64,000 nt of DNA, from contig OX638159.1 of assembly GCA_951804945.1 (NCBI GenBank), positions 38,130,001 through 38,194,000 of the forward strand. Direction: 5' to 3'. The notes under the pieces are model-generated. The model was given only the letters and a program-made list of their open reading frames with translations. It was not told where the DNA came from and made no database searches. Made by a program: the position numbers and the translations under genes. This DNA comes from Podarcis cretensis. Its lineage: Eukaryota. How positions within the stretch are numbered: position 1 is the first letter of the stretch; each line of letters opens with the position of its first letter. Below, piece by piece: positions 1-44,199 of the stretch.

Positions 1-445
1 GCTATTAGTATTTTTTAAAAGTATTTAAGGCATGCACTAGGTTCACATTTTCAATATTTCTTTTGTAACTATAACAACTGAAGTGTTCTCTAAGTAAAAC
101 CAAATAGCAGTTTCTTATTTTCAAGAAACTCCAGACAAAGCAACATGAAATTCTGCATTTTAACAGAAAGTTGCCCGATTTCTAAAAGGCTTTATTTTGT
201 ATTTCAGAGCAGATTGAACACCTGAGGTGGTTACAAGGAAGATAAGAAAACTGACAGGGGCAAAGATATTATAATATTCACTGGGTATACTTAAAAGCTT
301 TTCTCTAAGTTTTTCAACAACTATTCTTAAAGCTGCAGTGCCAGAAGACTTATAGGTAATAAAGGTAATGGGTTGCAATGACAAATAAAAAACAACAACT
401 GACCATTTCTAGCAGCTATTTAAATTAATGCACCAGTATATAATT

Positions 446-447
446 AA

Positions 448-486
<39 letters not shown>

Positions 487-488
487 AT
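446..488. repeat. (AAAT)n microsatellite
   Basis: About 10-11 perfect AAAT units. Confidence 0.95.
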
Positions 489-2197
489 TCAGATTAAAAT
501 ATAAATACCAAATGCCACTCATGATACTTGCAAGTCAATTACTTTATAAGGAAAAGAGCGAGAGGAGATATAATCCACATGCAACACTGGTCCTGGTTTT
601 CCTCCATATTTATAACATCTTCCTTCTAACTGAAGAATTTTCATATTGAATTTTTTATCCGATGGAAGCTTCCACAGAGCAGTAACATATATCTCACACC
701 ACACATAAACATTAATTTTTTCTCATTGTTGAGGGTAAGCTTTGTGTTTGTACTCTGTGTTCTTGAGCTAGTACGTAACACCAAACTACAGCTATAGCTT
801 CAAGTAACCTCACCTCAGCCAGGAAAATTATGCATATACTGTATAAGTGTCTTGGCAATTGTCTTTCCTAAATGTTACCTGCTAGGACGCCCTTCTAGAA
901 TCTTAGTTTGGGCGGGGGAGGACAGAGAGACTCCAGAATACACACAGGAGGAAGGATATAAGGGTTTCTGCATATTGTACTGAGGCCAAAATGCCCAAGG
1001 ATGTTAGGCCCCCAAGACACAAAACATGTCCTAGGGGGAACTGTCTGTAATGTAAGGTAGAAGCAGCTATCCTATGGAATATCTAGGATGTACTGTTGTA
1101 GGGTAGATGGGAGCATTTATCATTTGATTTCCATTATCATTCATGAGCTTGTGAAATAGAAATATTTTGCTGTAACAGTTTTAGTAGAAACATGTGCTCA
1201 GTAGGAAAAATCCAACCTGTGCAGTTTAGTCATTGGTATCTAATATCTTACACTGAACATATTGCACCCCAGATACATACACACCACAGTGTAAATTGAT
1301 GCATGCCATGTGTGCATGTTTTTCATGTCATCCCACACAAAGTTGTCCTCATCCAAGTTGCAGCCCACATGTTCCCCCCATTTAATTCAGTTTTTCTCCA
1401 TCCATGGATAATGTGGTAAGAAAAGTATCAAAGATAACACCACATGTTACTCAGCTTTCGACACACTGAAGCATATTGTGTAGGTGGTTTGTTTTTTTTA
1501 ACTTCTGTGGTAATGTTTTCCCATCTATCACCACACCCTCTACTTCCACTGGTGCAGCACACACATTTAAAAATTTATTTTTAATCCACAGTTTTATTCA
1601 AGTCTGTTTTGGGAAAGTCTGGTATTTTGGAAAGTTTGTATCTCTCTCTTTTATGTCCATGTGCACAGGTAAATGAACACACATGTGCATGCCCCAAAAT
1701 GGACCCCAGGTTTCTGGAATTCAGGAAGGTAGGCAGGTACTAACTGAGGGGAGTAAACAACAACACACAGGGGGCTACATTCCATCAATAACTGCCACTA
1801 ATGTGGACTGGAAAAACTGAGACAGAGTTCAATTGAAAGCAGTCATTTTTGGAGAAATATGCACAAAAGCAAAGTGAGAAACAGCCACTAGCTGTTGTGT
1901 GAGACAAAGCAAGGACATAGTATCTTTAGTACTTCCTTGCTTTTGCTTGGCAGCCATGCACAGCCTAGGCAGATAGGATTAAGTCCCCAGTCTTCCTTGC
2001 AGGCGTCCCTGTGCCACCATGCTTCTCTCAGGATTCCCTGCCCTCTAACCCTGGCAAGCTTTTTGGGGAAAGAAATAGCTATCGAGGGCAAGAAATAACA
2101 ATTTGAGACCAGGAACCCTTAAGTTGCCTTTTCTTTTTCCAGCTTCCACAGCACAGCTTTCCTCAACATCCCCACCCACCCACTTTGCTTAGATTTA

Positions 2198-2541
2198 AAA
2201 GGACCCCTGACCATTAGGTCCAGTCGTGACCGACTCTGGGGTTGCGGCGCTCATCTCGCTTTATTGGCTAAGGGAGCCGGCATACAGCTTCCGGGTCATG
2301 TGGCCAGCGTGACTAAGCCGCTTCTGGCGAACCAGAGCAGCGCACGGAAACGCCATTTACCTTCTCGCCAGAGCGGTACCTATTTATCTACTTGCACTTT
2401 GACGTGCTTTCGAACTGCTAGGTTGGCAGGAGCAGGGACTGAGCAACGGGAGCTCACCCCGTTGTGGGGATTCGAACCGCTGACCTTCTGATCGGCAAGT
2501 CCTAGGCTCTGTGGTTTAACCCACAGCGCCACCCACATCCC
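2198..2541 (-). mobile_element. Sauria SINE, near full length
   Basis: The reverse strand reads GGGATGTGGGTGGCGCTGTGG (A box)...GGTTCGAATCC (B box)...GGTCAGGGGTCC tail. 15-bp TSD CTTTGCTTAGATTTA at 2183-2197 and 2542-2556. Confidence 0.92.
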
Positions 2542-3299
2542 CTTTGCTTAGATTTACCCTCCTCTATGATCCTCACTGCCCAAAATCCTCTCTGCCCTCC
2601 TCCCTAGCTCCTCAGTTGCCCTAGATTGGAGATAAGAATGCAACTGCACACTGCAGCCAGTTGCCAGTCTAGGAAATAATCCTGCTGTCCTTCCCCTGGT
2701 CCCTACAGTTTCTTACAGTACTGTATTCTAGAAAAGTCGCTATCTGAATCCTGAATAGGAGTACTCCTGCTAGATGCAATGATGCATAGCAGCATTTTGC
2801 TGCAGGTCTCTTTTGGTGCAGCATGAAAGTTAAAACCCAAGCTTAGGTATTTGCAATTAGGTTAACAGGGGCATGAAATCATCTTCTTACAAAGGGTCAC
2901 CGATTGACCCATGGGGGAAAAACAGTGCATGCACATGTCTTCTATGATGAGTGAAGCCAGAACCAAAAGTGGGCTGAACTTGCAATACTGAAGGGCTGTA
3001 TGCAAGCTCGCTCTGCCGCTCACCCAGTGTTGGTGCTATCCCAACCTTAAGACCATATAAATTACTGCTACTTAGGCTGCATACACACTCCCACAGAAGC
3101 CCCACAGAATCTATTACAGAGCATTATTCAACATACCAGTAACTATTGTCAAACCAGGTACAGGACTGTGAAACAGTTTGCATGCAACTAAGCACCTGTG
3201 TTTCCCAAACTGCAAAGTAAAATGGATTAATGAAGCCCATCTGCAAAGAACTTAGTAGCATTCAGAATCCAATCTGAACAGAGACCAGAACAAACGCAC

Positions 3300-3392
3300 C
3301 TGTGAGGGTGTACTTGTTAATTCCATCTTTTCTTGGGATTTTTCCTTAGCTAGTCGTGCAGCTTCTTTAAATTCCTGAAATTTTTCTGCAAA
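3300..3392 (-). CDS. HOMER1: HOMER1 exon 4 (93 bp): FAEKFQEFKEAARLAKEKSQEKMELTSTPSQ
   Basis: Acceptor gcctttag|TTTGCA, donor CACAG|gtgcgt; phase 0-0; the peptide matches Homer1. Confidence 0.97.
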
Positions 3393-3794
3393 CTAAAGGC
3401 AAAGATTATATAATTATACACTGTATATAGCATAGCTTTGCTAAGCAGAACATACTCTATATAATAAATCAGGATAGAGAAAAACATTTGCACTCCAATA
3501 ATCAACAGGGGTTTATAGAGAATCTGAAGAGACCGTTCTTGAAATATCATGTTCTAGTGGTGGTGGTCACAAAGAATCTGTCTTCTGTTTGTCCTTCTAT
3601 CTGCAAAAATACAATGTGGAACAGCTATTCAGATTGCTAAGCCAGGTTGCTACCTCTCAAAAATGTCCAGAGCCATATCCTTTCAAAAACTGTCATCTAG
3701 CCTGTAGCCAAAAGTCAGTTATGCAATGAAACGTTTGGTATAACAGTTAACCATTTAGAGCCTGCAGTATCAGGGAAGAGGACCTTTAGGTATA

Positions 3795-4093
3795 CAGTGG
3801 TGCCTTGCAAGACGAAATTAATCCGTTCCGCGAGTCTCTTCGTCTTGCGGTTTTTTCGTCTTGCGAAGCACGGCTATTAGCGGCTTAGCGGCTATTAGCG
3901 GCTTAGCGGCTATTAATGGCTTAGCGGCTATTAACGGCTTAGCGGCTTTAAGAAAAAGAACTCGCAAGACGTTTCATCTTGTGAAGCAAGCCCATAGGAA
4001 AATTCGTCTTGCGAAGCACCTCAAAAAAAGGAAAACTCTTTCGTCTAGCGAGTTTTTCATCTTGCGAGGCATTCGTCTTGCGGGGCACCACAG
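3795..4093. mobile_element. Tc1/mariner (Tigger/pogo-like) MITE with internal 18-bp tandem repeat
   Basis: TA|CAGTGGTGCCTTGCAAGACGAA ... TTCGTCTTGCGGGGCACCACAG|TA terminal inverted repeats with TA TSD; four units of CGGCTATTAGCGGCTTAG (two with substitutions) at 3871-3942. Confidence 0.85.
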
Positions 4094-4554
4094 TACTTGA
4101 ATGCTCTTGCTTCTTTACCCACTGACTGGCTGGGTTTCTACTGAAGTAAAGCAAGGACTGCTGAAATTGCCATGGCTGAATATTCCTGCCTAGAGATTGA
4201 TAAGGAAACTGTTGCTGTTCTGATCCTACTATATTTTTCTACAGTACTAGTCACCATTAATTTTCAGAATACAGCTTGCTAGCCTTTTTTTCCCCCAGCA
4301 AGAGGCTCTGTGGGTTTTTTCTAATCCTGTGTAAGTAATCAATTTTAAATGGCATTTTACTTCAGATGATATGAATCATCAGTTCTTTAGGTAGGAGCCA
4401 AAGGCTCCTCTCCTCCCCTGGAGAAAGGCTCTCTCTATCAGTGGATGAGAACCTTTGAATTCAGACATTATGAATAGTAAATCAGAGAAGAATTCTCCTA
4501 GTGTACAGGGTCTGGCATATGTTCCTCTGTTACACTTGCTGATGTCTCTACCTG

Positions 4555-4614
4555 CAGAGTGGCTGGGGAAACCCAGCCAGATGGGCGGGGTATAAATAAT
4601 AAATTATTATTATT
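4555..4614 (+). mobile_element. 3' end of a LINE (L2/CR1 clade-like); related copies at ~42930-42980 (-) and ~53590-53668 (+)
   Basis: Shared CAGAGTGGCTGGGGAAACCCAGCCAGATGGGCGGGGTATAAATAA plus a (TTA/TTG)n-type tail, present three times in the window. Confidence 0.7.
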
Positions 4615-5195
4615 GACATTGGTTCTCATACGTAAGTCACACTCTGAGCTGGGGAGCATATAGGAGGACAGATTCCCAAGGGCCAGTGGAGAAATTTGAG
4701 AGGAAAGATGACAAGCTTTCCCTTATTTTCTTTAATTCCTTGTTGCATATAAACCTCTGGTTTACTTGACCATTTTATCACCAAGAATTGTCCCCACATG
4801 TGTGCAGGCATCTATATTTGAAAAATAATCCTTTTGTAATTTGCCAAGAAGCCATTTTTGTCCCCAATCTAACTGGCTTACACTTGCTTTTACATTTGTT
4901 TAATTTTCACTACTCAAGCACCTGTCTGGTTCCACAGAACTATCTGTTTCAGCAATTCTGACAAGTAGGCAGCACAACCATTTCCAAATTCAATGCTTTC
5001 TTCAGATACCATGCACAAAACCACATGTACCCCACTATATACTTCTCTGTAGAACAGCTGCATGCTGTAACAATTCAAAAGAATGTGCAAGAAGTCAATG
5101 TTCCCTGGGCTACATCTGTTCAAATACTCTGCTCCATATACAGGATACTCTCAAAAACCTACTTTCCCCACACAGAAACTAATAGCTCTATGGAT

Positions 5196-5397
5196 AGATC
5201 ATAGCTTAGTAGGGAACATGCTTTGCATCTAGAAGGTCTTGGATACAATCCCTTGGCATCTTTAGTTGAAATGGTCAGGTAACGGGAGATGAGAAAGGCC
5301 TATGCTTGAGGCCCTGGAAGTCACAGACAGAGCAGACTATATTGAGCTAGATGGCAAACAATATGATCTAGTATAAATGCAGCTCCCTGTATTCCTA
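5196..5397 (+). mobile_element. Degraded Squam3-like tRNA-derived SINE
   Basis: tRNA-like head (ATAGCTTAGT..CATGCTTTGCATCTAGAAGGTC..CAATCCC) and tail ...TGAGCTAGATGG...GCAGCTCCCTGTATTCCT, resembling the recalled squamate Squam3 consensus. Confidence 0.55.
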
Positions 5398-6587
5398 GAG
5401 CTCAAGCTACACTATAGCACTATTGGGGTTAAACCCTGACTTATTAAGTGCCCACTGCCAAATCTCTCTTGCACCAAAGACAGCTCTGTTACCATGGCCA
5501 CTGTAGGTTCTCAGCTGGAAGGGGGAGTGTGAACTGTGGGACTGGGCAAATGTTCACTAGAATAGTCAAGTACGGTTTTAATAGGGTGTCCTCCATTTGA
5601 GATCCCATACCACTTTAAAAGTGAATGTAAACCCTTCTAACAAGATTATATGGAGAGCTGAGGAAGACAATATCAGTGCTCTGACCATGTAGCTCACTAT
5701 TTGCCTCTTCTCCAGCTTGGGTCTTACCATCATAAAATGAAAGCAAGCCAACCAAAGCAGAAATCATGAATTATGGTCCTCAGTGCCGCTGGTTTGGTCA
5801 ATTCAAGGAAACCACTCATTGGCCAATGTAACTTGTACTGACTCCAACCCAACACATAAGGTTCACCTTCTCCATCAGGTTATATAACTGTAAGACTGGA
5901 TGAGAGCAGTCTCAACCCAAAACAGGTAATGCACACGGAGAAGTGCTGCCAAGTCCAATCCTGAACAAAGTTTAAGGACTTTGAATGTTGAGTGGGTTTT
6001 GGTCATTTGGCAAACAACATGATGACACTCACCCCATTCCATGTAAAGAAACTAAGCAGAATGGCAGTTGTATCTTGGTTTGACTCTAGTGATGGGTCAA
6101 GCATCTTCCACTGCCCATGAGGGCAGCAAGCTCATTTATGGGCTTCAGGGCAGGCCCATGCAAATCCAATGTCTTGCTGCTACTTCCTGCACCACCCAGC
6201 ACTTGCTACCTAAGGCAGCTGCCTCACTCTGCCTAACAAGAAGCCCAGGATTAGTTTTGGTATCAAGGGTTCTGCAAATTCATGATTGATGGCTTTAGTA
6301 GTTTTAGTAACTTTTTATAGGCTAAAAAAAATCTATTTCAGCCTTTGGCATAGTAAAATATTAAAAGGGCAAAAGAATAAATTTGAGAATTAATGTTTAT
6401 ATGGCATTATTCTTCCCAAACCTGCAATTATTTTGCTTTTGCTGTTATGAATTGGAGGAATATAGTGGCAACTTATGGTTTCCTTGATGAGTCTTCCTCC
6501 AGGGCAGGGGTAGGGAGGCATCTTTGCAGACACACACTAGCCAACACTTCAAGACCATGTTGAGATATTACCTTGCCTTTTACTTAC

Positions 6588-6719
6588 TTTTGAGAGATGG
6601 TGTTCAGAGGAAAATCCCAAGCCATAAACAGTATTTGCTCTGCTATCTGCCCACTGACCAAACTTCTGTGATGTTTTAGTGAATGTCATGTTGGGAGTGA
6701 TGGTGCTGTTTATTATTGC
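6588..6719 (-). CDS. HOMER1: HOMER1 exon 3 (132 bp): [44 protein letters not shown]
   Basis: Acceptor ttttttgcag|GCAATA, donor TCAAAA|gtaagt; phase 0-0; EVH1 core. Confidence 0.98.
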
Positions 6720-8293
6720 CTGCAAAAAAGAAAAGAAGAAGTTATGAAATAACAAAATAATATACTCATAAAGCTTCCCTTAACGTCATGGGCCAGGAGT
6801 CAGCTTCGCATGTTGAACAGCAACCTGAAGAGGGAGAAGGTGGAATTTTGTTAGTGATTAACATATCAGTGTAGATCCAGCTATGGATTCCAGTTCCTGC
6901 TTGCTCTCAGAGTAATTGTAAAGAGGGCAGAATGGAAGACTCAAAATTTGAGAATGATGCTAGACCCACTTTTGGAAAACTGGAGAGAGCTGTGCTCACC
7001 CTCGGGTTTTTTGCCTTGCATGCTGCGCTTTTTCTGTTGTTATCCTAGCCTTTAATTAAAATTTAATTAAAAAACGGGGACACCTTCATCCACAGCCCTG
7101 CCCACCCCTTTGTTAAATGGGTGTAATAATGACAGAATCTTTCCCCCCATAGGATTAACAGAGATAAAATGTGGGAGGTGAAAAGCTATGCAACCATTCC
7201 CCAGAGGAGTTTTTTCAGAGATAGGCTAACAGCAGCAACTGAAAGAGGCAGAGCAAGCTACCTTTTTTTCTACCCAAACTCCCCTGAACTCGCTATCCTG
7301 GGGATATTCTCTTAGGAACCTTTTCTCATTACAGTTATTTGCTGACAGGTCTCTAGCCTTACTCCAGGTTATTGCTAGTTAGACTTGGAAGCAGCTAGAT
7401 CTGCAGTGGACACATCACTCTATTCCCTTACAAGTCCCTAAATAGCCAGAGACTTTGGAAAAATCAAAGCCTGTACCTCTGAAGCAGGTAAATGTTTATA
7501 TCCAGATGGCATTCAGAAAACTAGAAAATGGAAAATGTTAAAAATTTAGAAAGGCACAATCAAGTGCACTCTTTTTATTTACAATGAAGACTGCAATCAA
7601 TTCCAAGTACAGCTTTTAGAAAGTGCACTAATGAGTAAGCCATTGTGTCACCCTTAAAAATCGTGATTAAGGCTTTTATGTATGGTTGAGACCAATCCTC
7701 TTGAAAGAGTCTTCACTCTCTATTAGCCTGTTGTATGACAGCATCACTACACTAAAAATGTTGGAGATATTGAAGTCATAGAATTACAAACCCATCAGGT
7801 TTGACAGATAGCACCTCCTTAAAATTAGGAAGCTAGCACAGGATTGGCAGAAACACATCTGGTGCAGCACAATCGTGTTCATGTCTACTCAGAAGTAATT
7901 TCCATTAAATTCAACAAGGCTTGCTCCCAGTTAATTGGGCACAAGATTATAGCCTTTAAATAATAAAAAAAACACCTGCTGAGGTGGCAGAAACAGTCAT
8001 CAGATAAGATTCAGAGAGCATGTTATTGCTTAATTCACATGGCGAGGTTTGCTATTAGCAGCCTTCCTGAAAAAGCTTACTGGGATTATCATTGTTTTAA
8101 GAGACTGAACAGGCAATCAGGAATGTTGTGCTTCCCTTCAACAATTGCTGTAACATCAAAGCACCATGTGCAACTGTGTGTAGAAAGGGAGGAGTTTGTA
8201 TTGGAAGGTTTGTTTCTTCTGCTGGTATGCACCAAAAAGGCATTGTTAAGAGGGGCTTTGAAACATGCTGCATTAGTTTTAAAAATGGCTATA

Positions 8294-8519
8294 CAGTGGT
8301 ACCTCAGGTTAAGTACTTAATTCGTTCCGGAGATCCGTTCTTAACCTGAAAGTGTTCTTAACCTGAAGCACCACTTTAGCTAATGGGGCCTCCTGCTGCA
8401 GCCGCGCCGCCACTACACGATTTCTGTTCTCAACCTAAAGCAAAGTTCTTAACCTGAGGTAATATTTCTGGGTTAGCGGAGTCTGTAACCTGAAGCGTAT
8501 GTAACCCGAGGTACCACTG
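8294..8519 (+). mobile_element. Tc1/mariner (Tigger-like) MITE, family A, copy 1
   Basis: TA|CAGTGGTACCTCAGGTTA ... TAACCCGAGGTACCACTG|TA; sister copies at 16032-16246 and 47679-47900. Confidence 0.9.
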
Positions 8520-10307
8520 TATAGAGGAGTGAAACTGTACATTCCACAGAAAATCTGTAATTCAGTTTTCCAAAACACAGTTTTCCTTACAATTTAAAGC
8601 AACCACAGGAAAACTCCAAATTGGATCAAAGCTTGTGGGACTGAGTGAGGGTCACTTAAACTGTCTCATCACATAGCAGCCACTAGCTCCAAAGGAAGAA
8701 AAAGTTGCAGCACCTCCCCCCTCTGCTGGGCTAATAGCAGCTTTGGGTAGTAAGATCAGGATAGAGTTAAATAGTCCCACATCTTCAACTTTGAGCTCTC
8801 CTACAGTTGTTTGAAATGTTGAGTGATTCAATCCACAGATCTTATGCATCACATGAAGTTCTGTAATGTGCTCTTGTATGTGACTCTTTGGATGAAACTG
8901 TTGCGCAAAAGTCAAGAACAAGATAGCAATAATACTCCACATTTAATTTATTTCAGAAGTCTAGGTTAACGAAACCTAGTTAGCAAGTAGGTGCCATAAA
9001 CTCTATTCTGTGTTTTTCAGGTTTTTCAAAAAATATGCTATCTATGCACTTTGTTCTAGTAAACTACTGATCAGAAACTGGAGAAGGTTCATTTTAAAGC
9101 AATAATTAGCTCTGAATTTAGATCAGGGCCATGGGAAGTTTGACACCTGTAGTCAGATCAGTTCCTGAATCCAAAGGTCATCTTCCCTGGGATTAGAAAT
9201 TGAGACTTACCACAGCAGCTTGAAATCTGCCACTCAGCAAAACTGGAGAAAGAAATACTCATTCAAACCTCAGTAACTTTAAATTGCGGCTCATTCCAAG
9301 GAATAGGTTTTCAAAAGATACAAATGACGCTGAAGCCAATGAAATCCTAATTAAAATGCCTAGGTCAAAGGTTCATATTTTTTGCATTGGCGGCAGCTGC
9401 CTTTCATCCAGATGAGGAATTGGTACCATATAGTTGTCGAAAAATGAAGGAATATTTTAGCTTTCTACATTTAAATCATCCAGTTGGTGGTGCTAGATAA
9501 TTGTGCAAACTGAATCCTTACATGAAACACTGCATGTTTATTCTGATGTCTGCAAGAGTCCACTACAGCATGAATGAAACTGAATGGCAGTGGAAATATT
9601 ATCAGAAGTTTACTTTGTGCCTTAACCAACAGGATACAATAGAAAAATTACATGGTCTTTTATTGTTTGAAATAAATCATACAGCATCCATATCTGCTTT
9701 GCATATTGACATCAACTAGTTTGCTTAATGAATTAGCAGACTGATTTACTCCAAGAATACAAACTGCTCATAATACTGGAGGCCAGGCAGCTGGAGTTTC
9801 TAAGTGGCTGATCATGAAATCAGCACATCTTTAGGCACCCCAGCCCCAACAATTATAGGGCAATTAGCAAAATGCCATTTTTTTAAAAGAAAAAAACTTT
9901 TTCCACCACAGAGCAAACAATGCAGATGTTTTAATAGTATTCTATTGTCTCTCCTGCTATCAAAATTTAGATTGTGAACTCCTTTGGGGCAGGGACCTCC
10001 ATTTTTCTTTTGCTTATGTTACACCATGAACTTGGGTGACATAATCTGTATTTTCTGCACAAGTATGCAGGAAGTTGGCCTTTTCCTTGAAGCTTTTTTT
10101 TTTTTAACTCTAGTCAGGAAGGATGAGTTTTGGATAATGTAATCTAAACACATTGATGAACCAATTTACCTAAGATAAAATATATTTGAACCATGTCAGG
10201 ATTTTAAGAAGATTCAGAGGGAGAGAAAATGCCAGTTGGAATAATCAAGCTGTTGATTTCCAAATAGTAATTTAGACTTGAAATCTTCACATTCAATATT
10301 ATCAGCA

Positions 10308-10334
10308 TATCTATCTATCTATCTATCTATCTAC
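10308..10334. repeat. (TATC)n microsatellite
   Basis: Tandem TATC units. Confidence 0.85.
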
Positions 10335-10384
10335 CTACTTATTTAACATATATCCTGCCGTTTCTCCCAATGGAGCCCAGGGTA

Positions 10385-10421
10385 AAAGGTAAAGGTAAAG
10401 GTAAAGGGACCCCTGACCATT
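10385..10421 (-). mobile_element. 5'-truncated Sauria SINE (tail only)
   Basis: (AAAGGT)n AAAGGGACCCCTGACCATT is the reverse complement of the SINE 3' end; 5-bp TSD GGGTA at 10380-10384 and 10422-10426. Confidence 0.85.
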
Positions 10422-10912
10422 GGGTAGCAATCAAATTTTAGTAAATGGATCAACTGTTGAACAGATTGATTAAATGAAACATTAGAACATTCCTCAATAT
10501 GCAGTGTTATGTTTAGTACAGACGTTTTGACATTCTGGCACACAGGGAAAATAAGACTAGATTTTCTGGTGGAAAATGGATTTCTACATTAATATTAATA
10601 AAAAAATAAAACTACTCAACATAATATCTGCCATATTACTTAGGACTAAAGATATATACTCCAAGCAGAATTCCTTTTAGCCTTTTTCCTCCTTTACAGT
10701 GAATTGAGAGACAGAGAAGTCAAGGAAACAAGAAGTCCCCAAACAGGATTCTCGACAAACTTCAAACATTAATAAAGAATTATATTGTATGTTAAGTTCC
10801 AAGAGTGATGTTCTCATTTTGCATCACTTTTCAGTAACGTTAAAAGGGGGGGGGGGAGACACACAGATTAAATGTAGAAGTTTACCTGAGTTTAAACTGT
10901 CAGATAGCTTAC

Positions 10913-11069
10913 CTTTGAGCCATCCAAGCTGATTATCCTATAGACATTTCTTGTGCTGTCATAGAAGTAGGACACAGTAACAGCATGCTTGCTGGTGGGA
11001 ACCCAGTTCTTCTTCGTGTTAGGGTCAATCTGGAAGACATGAGCTCGGGTGCTGTAGATGGGTTGCTCC
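10913..11069 (-). CDS. HOMER1: HOMER1 exon 2 (157 bp): (G)[52 protein letters not shown]
   Basis: Acceptor ctgcccttcag|GGAGCA, donor CAAAG|gtaagc; phase 2-0, which fits the 5-nt exon 1 CDS. Confidence 0.98.
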
Positions 11070-13450
11070 CTGAAGGGCAGAAAGTAAAAGTGATGAATCT
11101 GATTTGGACGCAATATGGTTGTACACAAGTCATTTGGATATTCCATCCATTGGCCCCTATGAACTTCACTTTGCATGAGTAATGTACTTGGCCCCCACAG
11201 GCTTGCGTGCATGGAGTAGGATATATCTGTGAAGCACATGAAAAGTACTCACAGGAAAGGGAAGCACAAGTCCTTTAAAATAAATTGAGTGGCCAGCTGT
11301 ACAGTCAGATAAAGGAGGCATATCTAAATATAGAGGCACTACTGATACACCACCTCCCCCTCCCTCATTCTCCATCTGTCAACCTCTTTAACACTAACTG
11401 TCAATAATAGAAGTGTGATTTTCTTCCATTGAGCGAAACCTAGTGAGAGGACTTTTCTCATCCTTTTCTTAAAATTCTAGAAGCCCTAGATATTATGAGC
11501 TATGACTTACTGAAAAATATTTGTTGCTTTCCTGTCAAATGCTTCACATGGTAGATCACAACTACTGCCTCTTTTAGCCTTTATCTCACAATCTAATATT
11601 ATGGCTGTTGAGGCATGTATAAAATATCTGCTTATGTCTGCCTAAAAAAAAAAGTACAGAATCTTAGCTGTCCATTAACACCAATGAATTCATTAATTCA
11701 ATAATCGTGTCGCTGTGATCAGGAATCTAGCACTCTGTACAAAATGGTTTGCTTCTCTCCAAACAAGTCATGATGCTAAGCTAAGGTTTGTCCTTGGCTT
11801 CCCAAACCTGGCTTGTTTGGACAGAAACAATGCGCTAGTTTGGACATCAAAGTTAGTCAAGGCTAGGGGCTTGCTGCTTGCACTTGAGGAGAATCTGCAC
11901 AACAGGAGCAATTTGAAAGTGATAGCAGAGAATTGTTTATAGTATTGAATAGTTAATCAATGAAATATCAAATAAAGTGCCCTATATGTGATTTAATCCC
12001 TTAGATCAAATCTCTAAGTCACAAAACTCATTGGATAGCCTAAGACAAGGGCAGAATGTCCACCAGCCAACTTCATAGGATTGTGTGTAAATAAATGACT
12101 TATGTAACTTTGTACATTTAAAAGATCTAAACTAGAGTATTAATGCTACCAGTTTTTTCTCTTCCAGGTTCAATCCTTTACATTTCTAAAGTTTAAAAGA
12201 TGGAAATATTTTTTTCCATATGGACTGTCTAGCATTGCTGATGTTATCTAGTAGCTACTCTTCAGTGTTCTACTACTGAACTGCAATTGTAATTAACAAT
12301 CTGAAGACTTTAGCACCATTCTCTAATTACGTAGGGGAGAGATAGGTCTGCAATTTTCTGGATCCTGTCTCATTCTTTTTTAAAAAGCTGGTATTACATT
12401 GGCTATCTTCTTATAGCCTCTTATTTTAGTGATGTGGCATAATTTATTTACTAGTTCAGCTACTTCACATTGTATGTCTTCACAAATTAGAGGTAACTCT
12501 TAGGTAAATGCCATCTGACTCCTGTTATATCATATTTTCACAGTTCACTTCCTTCTACACTTCATAACAAAGTTATTTTAATATTTCGCAACAATATCCT
12601 AACCACTGAGAGCTGCTACAACAGCTGCCACAACAAGGCTTAACATTTACCACCCTGAAACATGCTTGTACACACAAAGCAAAAGTAAAAACCAGGTTTC
12701 TTGGCAGGGGCTTTCTGCATTCTTCAATCACTGTCTCCAAACATTAGCAATACCAGAGGGAACCTTTCTTCCCCTTCATCCTACCCAAGGTATTTTTATT
12801 TAGTTACAAAATGTATATGTACCCTTCACTACTAAGAATAGAAAATACAATTTGCATAAAAATCAAAATTCTAATTAAAAATGGCAGGCTCAAATCTAAC
12901 ATCCTTAACAGGCCTGATAAAATAGAAAGGTTTTTGCCAGAAGGAGCCAGAGTAAAAAAATAGCTGAGTATGTACTAGGTGAGCCTCTCCACAGAACAGT
13001 GGTGTGCATTGAAATTTTTCTTAGGAAAGAGTTAGGGCCAAAGGTGACAGCTTCCAAGGGTGATTTGGGGGGGGGGGGGACACTGTGATGTCATGCCTGT
13101 GAGCACTGCACCTCTTTCCCTAAGGCAGGCTGAAGCTTTCTGGGCTCTGGGAAGGAGACACCAGGGAAACATTTAAGGGACTAGCTTTGTCCCCTTGGTC
13201 CACTGACCACACACCACTGCCATGGAAGGAGTCCCACAAGAGTTGCATGCAAGTTCTGCAGTGTAAATGCCAGCTCCTGGGGGCTGAGGCACTTTGCCTC
13301 CATCCCTTTTTTCCCCTAAGGGGCGGGTCCCATCAAGATTCAGATGCTCCATTAAGCCTCATTTCCCACCCTAGCTACAGCCCCAGTTTCATACCATCTC
13401 ATTTGGATTGACTTTGGAGAGATGAAAAATGAAGTAGTTTTTTTGACCAG

Positions 13451-13529
13451 TGTTGTTGTTGTTTAGTCGTTTAGTCGTGTCAGACTCTTCGTGACCTCAT
13501 GGACCAGAGCACTCCAGGCACTCCAGGCA
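13451..13529 (-). mobile_element. RTE-clade Bov-B LINE 3' terminal fragment
   Basis: (GTT)n TAGTCGTTTAGTCGTGTCAGACTCTTCGTGACCTCATGGACCAGAGCAC is the reverse complement of the recalled Bov-B 3' end with a (CAA)n tail. Confidence 0.75.
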
Positions 13530-13551
13530 TGCCAGTAGTAAGCAGTAAACT

Positions 13552-13907
13552 GGGACACGGGTGGCGCTGTGGGTTAAACCACAGAGCCTAGGGCTTGCCG
13601 ATCAGAAGATCGGTAGTTAGAATCCCCGCAATGGGGTGAGCTCCCGTTGTTCGATCCCAGCTCCTGCCAACCTAGCAGTTCGAAAGCACGTCAAAGTGCA
13701 AGTAGATAAATAGGTACCGCTCCGGCGGGAAGGTAAACAGCGTTTCCATGCGCTGCTCTGGTTCGCCAGAAGTGGCTTAGTCATGCTGGCCACATGACCC
13801 GGAAGCTGTACGCCGGCTCCCTTGGCCAGTAAAGCGAGATGAGCGCCACAACCCCAGAGTCGTCCGCGACTGGACCTAATGGTCAGGGGTCCCTTTACCT
13901 TTACCTT
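13552..13907 (+). mobile_element. Sauria SINE, full length
   Basis: GGGACACGGGTGGCGCTGTGG...(ACCTTT)n tail; 12-bp TSD TAAGCAGTAAAC at 13539-13550 and 13908-13919; B box mutated (AGTTAGAATCC). Confidence 0.93.
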
Positions 13908-15940: not shown

Positions 15941-16031
15941 CTAGAGCAACCATACTGGGCAGGGCAGGGGTGTGAGGGAGAATATGGGGATTTTTTTAAA
16001 AGCAGGTCTTGGACCACCTTGTAATACTATA

Positions 16032-16246
16032 CAGAAGTACCTCAGGTTAAGTACTTAATTCATTCTGGAGGTCTGTTCTTAACCTGAAACTGTTCTAAAC
16101 CTAAAGCACCGCTTTAGCTAATGGGGCCTCCTGCTGCCACTGCACAATTTCTGTTCTCATCCTGAAGCAAAGTTCTTAACCCGAGGTAGTATTTCTGGGT
16201 TAGCGGAGTCTGTAACCTGAAGCCTATGTAATCCGAGGTACCACTG
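16032..16246 (+). mobile_element. Tc1/mariner MITE, family A, copy 2
   Basis: Homologous to 8294-8519; TA flanks; TIR CAGAAGTACCTCAGG...CCGAGGTACCACTG. Confidence 0.88.
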
Positions 16247-16263
16247 TAAATATGTATTTAAAC

Positions 16264-31864: not shown

Positions 31865-33098
31865 GGGTCATTCCATATCAAGTGATCCATCTTTTTTACC
31901 TCATGTCACCTGATTTTCTTAATATTTTGTACACTTGTTGGATGATCAAAACTAAGTTTAAATCTAAAATTTTAATTTTTCCTCTCATCCTGTTTTTGAG
32001 TTATGACGGTTTGAAATTTCAAAAAATTGACAATTTTGGCCTTGCTGACTACACAAAAACCTTTAAAGCTCAGCCCAGGATTGAGATGCATCAAAACTAA
32101 AAACACCAATCTTTTCAGAACTTTGTGGGCTTTAACAGGATATGTCACATGGTGGACTTACTTAAAAATGTAAATTTTAAATTTAAGTTGCAAAATTTAA
32201 AAAGTGATAAAAATATGATTAAAAGTTTCCAAAAAACTGTGTTCATTGTTTAATATTTCTAATAGCTATCTGTAAAATTTTATCTTGGGATCTCAATGGG
32301 ATCTGTCTGCCTTATACATGTCTGCATTATTGGCTTCTATTTAGGATAAATTGGTCTTCTTGGAGGAAATATATAACAAAATAAATAAGACTTCAACTAT
32401 AACATTAGTCGTTGCAGACATTTCTTTAGAAAGTTATCAATTAAAAGGTGTCTGGAAAGCCAGTCAAGGTTTTCTTTTAAAAATGTATTCCAAAGCAGAT
32501 TGATAGCTTGCTGTTGCATGATAGAATTAACACTTGGAAAGAATTCTTGTTAGTACTTCATCTTGTGACCATTACAACAAAATGCATATCAAACAAAATT
32601 ATGGGGAAAATGTGTAAGAACGTCACAGTTGCTTCTTCACTTTTATAGTCCACCAACAGCACATGGGTCAACAACCACGTTAGCTTGTATTCACAGGTCG
32701 CATACCCAGTTATCTCAGCCATATCCAGAGATTTTGTACCTCCTTCAATGTCAAACTTCTCCCTCTCATTGCTAAAGAAGTACCATACACCTTGGTCACA
32801 ATTTCTGTTGGACTGGATGTAGCAATGAAATCCTTGTGTTCCCCCTTGATCACTTTCACTCTTTTTGTCATTTTAGGAGCATTTCTTCTTTTCTGCACTC
32901 CTCATTTGTTGAAAATAAGAACTAGATAGAAAGGATGTTATCTTGGCACCAGTTAAACAGTTCCAGCAGTGTCATAATGTTGTTTGAGATTTATTTTGTT
33001 GCTAAACTTAGTTTTGATCATTCAACAAGTGTACAAAATCCTAAGAAAATTGGATGACATGAGGTAAAAAAGTTGGACCACGTGATATGGAATGATCA
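31865..33098 (-). mobile_element. Internally deleted DNA transposon, Sola2-like
   Basis: 96-bp TIRs (31865-31960 and 33003-33098, ~11 mismatches), GGG 5' terminus, 4-bp TSD AGAA (31861-31864, 33099-33102); minus-strand remnant EITGYATCEYKLTWLLTHVLLVDYKSEEATVTFLH. Confidence 0.7.
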
Positions 33099-35951: not shown

Positions 35952-35956
35952 CCCAT
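35952..35956 (-). CDS. HOMER1: HOMER1 exon 1 coding portion (ATGGG)
   Basis: Minus strand ...GGTCATC ATGGG|gtaagg at the edge of the CpG island; joins exon 2 to give ATG GGG GAG CAA (MGEQ). Confidence 0.93.
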
Positions 35957-43409: not shown

Positions 43410-43773
43410 GAGGGACGCAGGTGGCGCTGTGGGTTAAAGCCTCAGTGCCTAGGACTTGCCGATCGAAAGGTCGGCGGTTCGAATCCCTGCGGCGGGGTGC
43501 GCTCCCGCTGCTCGGTCCCAGCGCCTGCCAACCTAGCAGTTCGAAAGCACTTCCGGGTGCAAGTAGATAAATAGGGACCGCTTACCAACGGGAAGGTAAA
43601 CGGCGTTTCCGTATGCGGCTCTGGCTCGCCAGAGCAGCAATGTCACGCTGGCCATGTGACCCGGAAGTGTCTCCGGACAGCGCTGGCCCCTGGCCTCTTA
43701 AGTGAGATGGGCGCACAACCCCAGAGTCTGTCAAGACTAGCCCGTACGGGCAGGGGTACCTTTACCTTTACCT
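43410..43773 (+). mobile_element. Sauria SINE, full length, second subfamily
   Basis: GGGACGCAGGTGGCGCTGTGG, intact B box GGTTCGAATCC, (ACCTTT)n tail; 13-bp TSD TATACACAACTAT at 43397-43409 and 43774-43786. Confidence 0.93.
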
Positions 43774-44199
43774 TATACACAACTATTAAAATTATATGAT
43801 AAATCTTTTTTTGCAAAATTTTAATGCCCAATGGTAAAATCCTGTTAGCCAGAATGTAAATGATAAAGAAATTCTTGATCCAATGTGAGGAATAAGGGGA
43901 TGCAGGAACCAAATGCAGGAACCAAAGGGGAAGGAGTTCTTAAAGATGCATAGAGACTACTTATTGCCCAATGAGCTTTGAGTAGTGAAACTTTTATTCA
44001 AAGGTGATTCAGATGCAAGTCTTTCAAAAAGAATCCAGAATTGAATTTCGGATATGACTTTGCAAGCAAACTTTAAAAAATGTATCAGAATGTATGGACT
44101 ACCATAATGACATCCAATCTTAGAGTTACAGACGTTCATTGAAAGCCTTCACATGCATTAATTTATCAGCACAACCATTTCAAAACATAAAAGGCTGGT

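Follow-up and report, generated by a model that had tools for sequence, protein, structure and literature searches.

In the lizard Podarcis cretensis, two SINEs of the same family lie in opposite orientation in the two introns that flank exons 2-4 of HOMER1. The question raised by this locus is whether the pair is a special acquired device for making a lizard-specific circHomer1, as the preliminary description proposed, or an ordinary arrangement of a common repeat. The window, meaning the whole stretch of 64,000 nucleotides that was analysed, was used together with neighbouring sequence and control DNA.

HOMER1 exons and the predicted exon 2-4 circle

The gene was identified as HOMER1 by several lines of evidence. 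Pfam WH1 matches fall on exons 2 and 3 (EVH1/WH1), Homer1 structures score above Homer2 and Homer3 for the EVH1/WH1 exons of the window, and snake Homer1 (P0029) matches the locus by tblastn in 8 colinear blocks that are 78-100% identical. Furthermore, the remaining Homer1 coding exons are present in order after the EVH1/WH1 exons, and the two paralogous exons found are both on other contigs. An Rfam search of 84,000 nt gave 0 matches. The exon map is as follows.

35952..35956, minus strand: probable end of the coding part of HOMER1 exon 1, with the start codon and two further bases before a splice donor
10913..11069, minus strand: HOMER1 exon 2, 157 nt, EVH1/WH1; predicted back-splice acceptor at 11069
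6588..6719, minus strand: HOMER1 exon 3, 132 nt, EVH1/WH1; contains the AUG at circle nt 188
3300..3392, minus strand: HOMER1 exon 4, 93 nt; predicted back-splice donor at 3300
1..3299, minus strand: in-window part of HOMER1 intron 4 (whole intron 11.9 kb)
L004:1239-1381, outside the window, left of base 1: HOMER1 exon 5, 143 nt

The likely exon 1, which is the sole motif match upstream of exon 2 in a 204-kb region, adjoins a CpG island at 36-38 kb and would give an intron 1 of 24.9 kb. To the left of window base 1, intron 4 takes in a third SINE (SINE C) and a young LINE before exon 5 is reached. Exons 2-4 add up to 382 nt (157+132+93), and the predicted circle would carry a 79-aa ORF crossing the junction (nt 188-427), with an exon 4>2 junction peptide ending ...[18 protein letters not shown]. 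The gene, exon map, SINE family, circle size, junction and junction peptide given in the preliminary description were all reproduced. A lizard circle of exons 2-5 would measure 525 nt.

The same circle has been described in mammals. According to PMC12249824, a circHOMER1 of exons 2-4 is known in pig (Chr02_64288819_64298085), where it was shown by divergent PCR, Sanger sequencing and RNase R, was verified in mouse and is listed in human (hsa_circ_0073132 / hsa_circHOMER1_003). Its exons have the lizard lengths of 157, 132 and 93 nt, 382 nt in all, and the ORF predicted for the pig circle (nt 188-427, 79 aa, crossing the junction) has the lizard coordinates, so that the term lizard-specific has to be given up. 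What differs is that for pig and mouse the circle is backed by PCR and RNase R experiments, while it is only predicted in the lizard, where the flanks hold Sauria SINEs. Two pig papers number their circle as exons 5-7; no accompanying length was found there, and this numbering was set aside. The better known circHomer1a, made of exons 2-5 (522 nt in human), comes from the same gene and uses the same exon 2 acceptor as the lizard prediction, and it is said to depend on complementary sequences in the flanking introns (PMC7577899, PMC12249824). However, its donor belongs to exon 5 and its flanking introns are 1 and 5, and in the lizard no long inverted match brackets exons 2-5. Because mammals make the same circle, a lizard exon 2-4 circle appears fairly likely.

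Pairing across the exons and within intron 4

The repeats that bear on the prediction are listed below.

13552..13907, plus strand: SINE A, a full-length copy of Sauria/Squam1 that lies within HOMER1 intron 1 and is antisense in the pre-mRNA
2196..2541, minus strand: SINE B, near full-length copy in HOMER1 intron 4, sense in the pre-mRNA
L004:9549-9896 (G000:C11:38129549-38129896), plus strand: SINE C, in intron 4 just outside the window, left of base 1
10390..10425, minus strand: 36-nt 3' fragment of the A/B family, located in intron 2; 97% alike to the tail of A, in the opposite orientation

All three long copies carry motifs resembling the A and B boxes of a tRNA-type internal promoter, at nt 11 and 65. 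Target-site duplications of 12 nt (A, at 13539 and 13908), 13 nt (B, at 2183 and 2542) and 8 nt (C) surround the copies, with T, the usual first letter in this family, in A and C and A in B. The (ACCTTT)n 3' tail, a Sauria/Squam1 feature (PMC13295347), is found in A and C and is absent from B, which is cut at the tail. The Sauria SINE corresponds to Squam1 (PMC10670947, PMC13295347) in its length of ~350 nt, its box-like motifs, its ACCTTT tail and its target-site duplication, the assignment being made by these features, and with B differing by its missing tail. The copy number, ~120,000 here by extrapolation, compares with 65,094-130,894 in four lacertids (PMC10670947, PMC13295347).

Inverted same-family repeats are thus present in both introns flanking exons 2-4. 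The arms 2196-2541 and 13552-13897 (346 nt, 91% complementary) are 11,010 nt apart and align without gaps at 316/346 nt, in agreement with the ~91% identity without indels first estimated by eye; the distances from the exon 2 acceptor to the start of A (2.48 kb) and from the exon 4 donor to the end of B (0.76 kb) were likewise confirmed. The 30 differences are indeed mostly transitions (27, with 3 transversions), but the expectation that many mismatches would pair as G-U needs correcting: on the pre-mRNA strand there are only 13 G-U pairs, against 16 true mismatches, of which 13 are A-C. No inverted match within introns 1-6 is stronger than A:B, which scores 490 bits vs 437 for B:C and has a predicted duplex energy of -680 vs -620 kcal/mol, and by the exon map the loop between A and B shortens from 11 kb to 3.6 kb once introns 2 and 3 are spliced out. 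The best match that brackets exons 2-5 is not comparable, as it spans 76 nt (85.5%) and is distant from the splice sites; exons 2-4 could therefore be favoured over exons 2-5 here. From exon 1 to the last coding exon, no long copy other than SINE B is in the sense orientation.

SINE C is inverted to B in the same intron, 2.3 kb away and 88% alike, with Watson-Crick pairing in 305/346 columns. In the nascent RNA, B has two possible partners, A on the far side of the exons and C in its own intron, and the two pairings would be mutually exclusive: an A:B duplex is predicted to bring the exon 4 donor to the exon 2 acceptor as long as intron 1 has not been spliced, and a B:C duplex to favour linear splicing. 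That inverted intronic SINEs can promote back-splicing, as had been argued, is supported. As set out in PMC6283421, IRAlu-type back-splicing likewise involves inverted same-family SINEs on the flanks and a competing pair inside one flanking intron, and a SINE-driven circRNA locus is one where pairs across the exons minus pairs within an intron is at least 1. HOMER1 exons 2-4, with a squamate SINE and a predicted circle, have only one pair across (A:B) and one within (B:C), and the difference, 1 - 1 = 0, lies below this value. Editing of human Alus, taken as a readout of their pairing, decays over a length scale of ~800 nt, and pairing across gene segments is weaker (PMC4066801). By this rule, the editing signal expected of A:B at 11 kb is near zero, which makes editing a weak test.

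Other repeats and sequencing runs were also considered. The copy at 43412-43774 was rejected as a partner because it is 80% alike to A and B, belongs to a different subfamily and has its place upstream of the likely exon 1, and the elements 8290-8521 and 16028-16248 were rejected as a bracket because they are direct repeats. The tail-to-flank junction of SINE A is also found in runs X18, X20 and X21, and SINE A is probably shared with another organism that is closely related (organisms D and E). None of the runs listed is recorded as RNA, all of them being contigs, and 18 of 23 rows are RNA by guess only (shares 0.02-0.14). The small share of run X1 on the intron 1 stretch was rejected as a sign of expression, since 11 of 30 bins are covered, in effect repeats only, and read depth over this SINE stretch is no measure of copy number. 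Letter differences inside the SINE were rejected as editing; they come from thousands of other copies and are seen in DNA-sized runs as well.

Base rates and divergence of the SINE copies

In 1,000,000 control nt, the family has 80 copies of at least 250 nt and forms 7 inverted pairs at least 91% alike within 11 kb. Such a pair is found in 26 of 85 overlapping control windows of 64 kb, and brackets 300 of 3110 placements of introns of this size (563/3110 at an identity of at least 88%). Hence, an inverted pair is not above chance in a 64-kb window and is weakly above chance across introns of this size. No depletion of inverted pairs was seen in the controls, with 9 of 11 pairs inverted at distances up to 3 kb and 30 of 64 at distances up to 11 kb. 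The closeness of A:B to the splice sites is rare per placement (5/3770, Poisson estimate 0.002), with tightness limits that were chosen after the pair had been seen.

The two copies have diverged as ordinary ones do. A and B differ from the control majority by 5.4% and 4.3% (control median 6.0%), and 18 of their 30 differences are at CpG. Compared with control copies, A and B have 0 rare letters in common; A ranks 20th of 43 among the neighbours of B, and 16 of 41 control copies match B as closely as A does. On these grounds it was rejected that the two had co-evolved or undergone conversion.

Weighing the explanations and their meaning

Taken together, we consider it probable that A and B are two independent insertions of a SINE with ~80 copies/Mb, opposite by chance, whose influence on the 382-nt circle, one already made by mammals, would not go beyond tuning; their separate target-site duplications count for independent insertions. 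The likely outcome would be a minor exon 2-4 circle as a by-product of splicing, to which the SINEs would on balance contribute little. Several observations stand against a small effect, and the same ones suggest that A:B might be an effective cis driver that beats B:C, raises the lizard exon 2-4 circle and shifts the balance away from the exon 2-5 circle, which dominates the mammalian HOMER1 literature, as a convergent by-product. Indeed, A:B is the stronger match and the more stable duplex with a short spliced loop, and A, being transcribed first, could capture B before C exists. Moreover, both arms lie within 3 kb of the splice sites, nothing comparable surrounds exons 2-5, and young TEs of the same family are the usual dimers at circle loci (PMC8516420); the likely presence of A in a second organism also counts against the small-effect reading. 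However, C is nearer to B and in the same intron, Alu pairing falls off over far shorter distances, and mammals make the exon 2-4 circle without Sauria SINEs. On balance, such a driver seems unlikely. Still more doubtful is a three-SINE switch, where a squamate-only pair convergently took over HOMER1 back-splicing, with exons 2-4 and not 2-5 as the main circle and SINE C as a brake.

The preliminary description had also offered skipping of the EVH1 exons. Intronic inverted repeats can alter exon inclusion, but splicing of exon 1 directly to exon 5 would lose the reading frame and lead to a stop after 29 codons, so that no EVH1-less protein would result and the product, a likely decay substrate, would only lower HOMER1; it is very improbable that pairing mainly causes this skipping. 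A selected lizard innovation giving a functional lizard-specific circHomer1 or peptide would fit with a SINE A that is probably common to organisms D and E and with the junction-crossing ORF of the predicted circle. Against it, the circle and ORF coordinates are already described in pig and the circle is listed in human (PMC12249824), and A and B look like ordinary copies. We regard it as scarcely credible. The base rate, the lack of shared rare letters and the nearer competitor C equally speak against the pair as a special acquired device, and we retain the reading of two chance insertions with a small effect.

The arrangement is ordinary, and both the mechanism and the circle are already in print. 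By extrapolation from 7 per Mb, ~10,000 equally good inverted pairs are expected genome-wide. A cross-species study traced circles associated with young TEs to convergent origins as by-products, with no detectable selection on the dimers (PMC8516420); that work likewise describes lineage-restricted SINE dimers around orthologous exons but covers five mammals, whereas the HOMER1 pair would be a reptile case, predicted from its DNA. No circRNA studies of lizards were found in the literature searched. If the pair sets the circle level, the model of convergent TE-driven circRNA origin would extend to reptiles, and the locus would offer a compact natural test of competition between pairing across and within in a synaptic gene. 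If the three-SINE switch were true, the wide differences in Squam1 insertions between lacertids would make relatives without A, B or C natural deletion mutants for testing repeat-driven circles outside mammals.

The HOMER1 gene and its inverted SINE pair

As judged from protein similarity, the gene in the window (G000:C11:38130001-38194000, in a genome of 1.51 Gb) is HOMER1, on the minus strand. Indeed, Pfam WH1 is matched by its exons 2 and 3, Homer1 structures score above Homer2 and Homer3 in the exon 2 comparison, and snake Homer1 (P0029) gives 8 colinear blocks on the gene region. Exon 1 likely ends at 35952, adjoining a CpG island, according to a motif; intron 1 would then measure 24.9 kb, while introns 4 and 5 measure 11.9 kb and ~ 13.3 kb. 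The exons and SINE copies considered are the following, L004 being the sequence that adjoins the window on the left.

11069-10913, minus strand: HOMER1 exon 2
6719-6588, minus strand: HOMER1 exon 3
3392-3300, minus strand: HOMER1 exon 4
L004:1381-1239, minus strand: HOMER1 exon 5, 143 nt, outside the window
13552-13907: SINE A, intron 1
2196-2541: SINE B, intron 4, inverted relative to A
L004:9549-9896: SINE C, intron 4, ~ 100-450 nt left of window base 1

Exon 5 is open into intron 5 for ~ 11 codons before a stop (L004: 1381 to about 1205, minus strand), as expected of the short Homer1a isoform.

The inverted A/B pair of the preliminary description is real: the match covers 346 nt at 91% complementarity, and 27 of the 30 differences are transitions. 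On the pre-mRNA, the 345 columns of the predicted A:B duplex comprise 315 Watson-Crick pairs, 13 G-U pairs and 16 mismatches, 13 of them A-C. Every SINE copy is flanked by a separate target-site duplication and contains box-like promoter motifs; the ACCTTT tail described for Sauria SINEs in PMC13295347 is seen in A and C. Recomputing the exon 2-3-4 circle gave the same length (382 nt), exon 4>2 junction sequence and junction peptide end as in the preliminary description.

Contigs from other samples, X18 and X20 (organism D) and X21 (organism E), were compared with window:12000-15500. They begin within the last 20-21 nt of A, an overlap below the 31-letter threshold for bridging, and continue into unique flank, with 27 differing letters in a 1479-nt flank piece in X21. 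An empty site, however, would be without the SINE tail, and no joint skipping A was found among the 15 listed (511 more lie beyond these). SINE A is thus likely common to organisms D and E, although the assembly may itself have been made from X18. X1, only guessed to be RNA, shows coverage on repeats alone.

Chance expectation and divergence of the copies

Five 200-kb blocks at round coordinates, chosen by us, served as controls and held 94 family matches; the counts use the 80 copies of at least 250 nt, leaving out the 14 shorter ones. Extrapolation gives ~ 120,000 copies genome-wide, inside the range of 65,094-130,894 tabulated for four lacertids (PMC10670947, Table 1). The subfamily of A accounts for 41 of the 80. 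Inverted pairs at least 91% alike and at most 11 kb apart occur 7 times in the blocks, and such a pair is present in 26 of the 85 overlapping windows of 64 kb. When the HOMER1 geometry was slid over the controls, in placements that overlap and hence are not independent, an inverted pair bracketed the exons as follows.

Bracketing inverted pairs in control placements
Whole introns, at least 75% alike: 1317 of 3110
Whole introns, at least 88% alike: 563 of 3110
Whole introns, at least 91% alike: 300 of 3110
3 kb per side, at least 91% alike: 12 of 3730
Limits as tight as A/B: 5 of 3770 (Poisson estimate 0.002)

The tight fit of A and B to the splice sites is uncommon per site, but its limits were defined post hoc. 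Furthermore, a vertebrate genome has on the order of 100,000 internal exons, so that hundreds of similarly tight cases are expected.

The A-B identity is ordinary for the family, given that, of 41 control copies, 16 match B as well as A does, or better, that A ranks 20 of 43 among the neighbours of B, and that the two share no rare letter and only 2 non-majority ones; 18 of the 30 differences fall at CpG. Seen from A, B comes eighth out of 43, and 92% identity to A is attained by just 3 of the 41 controls. This slight closeness is likely due to the low divergence of B, which differs from the control majority at 15/346 positions, compared to 19/354 for A and 33/342 for C.

Competing pairings and neighbouring elements

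Searching 204 kb around HOMER1 with SINE A returned 15 family matches, A itself included. SINE C lies 2.3 kb from B in inverted orientation, the two being 88% alike. In an all-against-all comparison of introns 1-6 for repeat matches, A:B is the only long match joining intron 1 to intron 4 (490 bits) and B:C the only one inside intron 4 (437 bits); B has two weaker matches in intron 6 (78-80%), and introns 1 and 5 share nothing beyond 76 nt at 85.5%. With one pair across and one within, the across-minus-within difference for exons 2-4 is 0, a count that omits three shorter internal matches of other repeats in intron 1. Such competition is described in PMC6283421, where a difference of at least 1 marks circle-flanking introns. 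In human Alus, according to PMC4066801, editing drops off the farther away the nearest inverted copy lies, with a length scale of ~ 800 nt, and there is less of it across gene segments; extrapolated from human, the distance term comes to 0.16% for B:C, 0.03% for A:B with introns 2 and 3 removed (3.6 kb) and ~ 0 for A:B at 11 kb.

Other elements lie around these copies; L005, L006 and L007 are further handles around the gene.

L004: about 3816-8601, minus strand (sense with HOMER1): LINE, intron 4, left of the window
L005: about 5637-5723: near-perfect palindrome, intron 5, 87 nt with a 36-bp stem
31868-31960 and 33003-33095: inverted arms, intron 1, 93 nt, 90% alike, 1042 nt apart
13453-13535, minus strand: short piece with a (CAA)n-type tail, directly adjoining SINE A
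43412-43774: copy of a second SINE subfamily, with three further copies in L006 and L007
8290-8521, 16028-16248, 47702-47904 and 3786-4093: short elements with inverted ends

The LINE makes up ~ 40% of intron 4 and carries two open frames, 347 and 1274 codons long between stops, with endonuclease and reverse transcriptase domains. All 40 scored matches of a 601-nt piece, self included, are 99-100% identical, hence a very young family. The influence of the element on exon 4-5 splicing could exceed that of the SINEs. The palindrome folds at -61 kcal/mol over 101 nt, 5.5 kb past exon 5, possibly in or beyond the Homer1a 3' UTR; it could represent a mobile element's inverted end. The 93-nt arms are likely DNA transposon ends and form a second predicted within-intron duplex. 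The piece at 13453-13535 is likely a Bov-B LINE 3' end, at whose edge SINE A appears to have inserted. Copies of the second SINE subfamily (22 of the 80 control copies) are younger, 92-96% alike and 80% to A; three lie in HOMER1 introns 6 and 7 in a single orientation. The short elements are likely MITEs, the first three forming a single family (82-88% alike).

Known HOMER1 circles and the probable role of the pair

The exon 2-4 circle, previously predicted to be lizard-specific, is known from pig, mouse and human. For pig, PMC12249824 reports a three-exon circHOMER1 (157, 132 and 93 nt, total 382 nt) backed by divergent PCR with Sanger sequencing and by RNase R; the circle was verified in mouse and has a human counterpart, hsa_circ_0073132, of 382 nt. 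The conclusion of that paper gives 352 nt, in conflict with its own results and table. Its predicted ORF (nt 188-427, 79 aa) agrees with the predicted lizard circle in AUG (nt 188), length (79 aa) and end (nt 427). The better studied circHomer1a comprises exons 2-5, as stated in PMC7577899. The human exon 2-5 circle is reported at 522 nt; that of the lizard would be 525 nt (window 11069 to L004:1239), likewise a multiple of three. Its Homer frame lacks a stop, with AUGs at nt 188 and 356, giving an endless reading frame. The mammalian exon 2-4 circle raises the odds of the same circle in the lizard, and also shows that the circle can form without Sauria SINEs. No lizard circRNA study was among the papers that the literature search listed.

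On the pre-mRNA, the order is A, exons 2-4, B, C, and the A:B and B:C duplexes are mutually exclusive on paper. In some transcripts B would pair with A while intron 1 persists, aiding exon 4>2 back-splicing; in others B would pair with C, with no help to back-splicing. The distance and competition argument favours B:C; against it weigh the computed stability of A:B (-680 versus -620 kcal/mol) and the transcription of A before B, with C after B. That A:B is a strong driver of the circle is rather unlikely, the circle itself being formed in mammals without Sauria SINEs. Exon skipping, the other outcome proposed in the preliminary description, is very improbable as the main effect of the pairing, since joining exon 1 to exon 5 would be out of frame, with a stop after 29 codons.

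A pair selected as a lizard innovation is the least credible reading, the identity of the copies being ordinary. In the main text of PMC8516420, Homer is absent; circles at orthologous loci there accompany young lineage-specific TEs as convergent by-products, the TE dimers being without sign of special selection. Long, repeat-rich flanking introns are tied to circle output, circHomer1 included, in PMC6817660. The inverted pair stands as an observation and its interpretation is partly supported, both mechanism and circle being of known type: the output would probably be a minor circle, a by-product of a sort that HOMER1 is already known to make.
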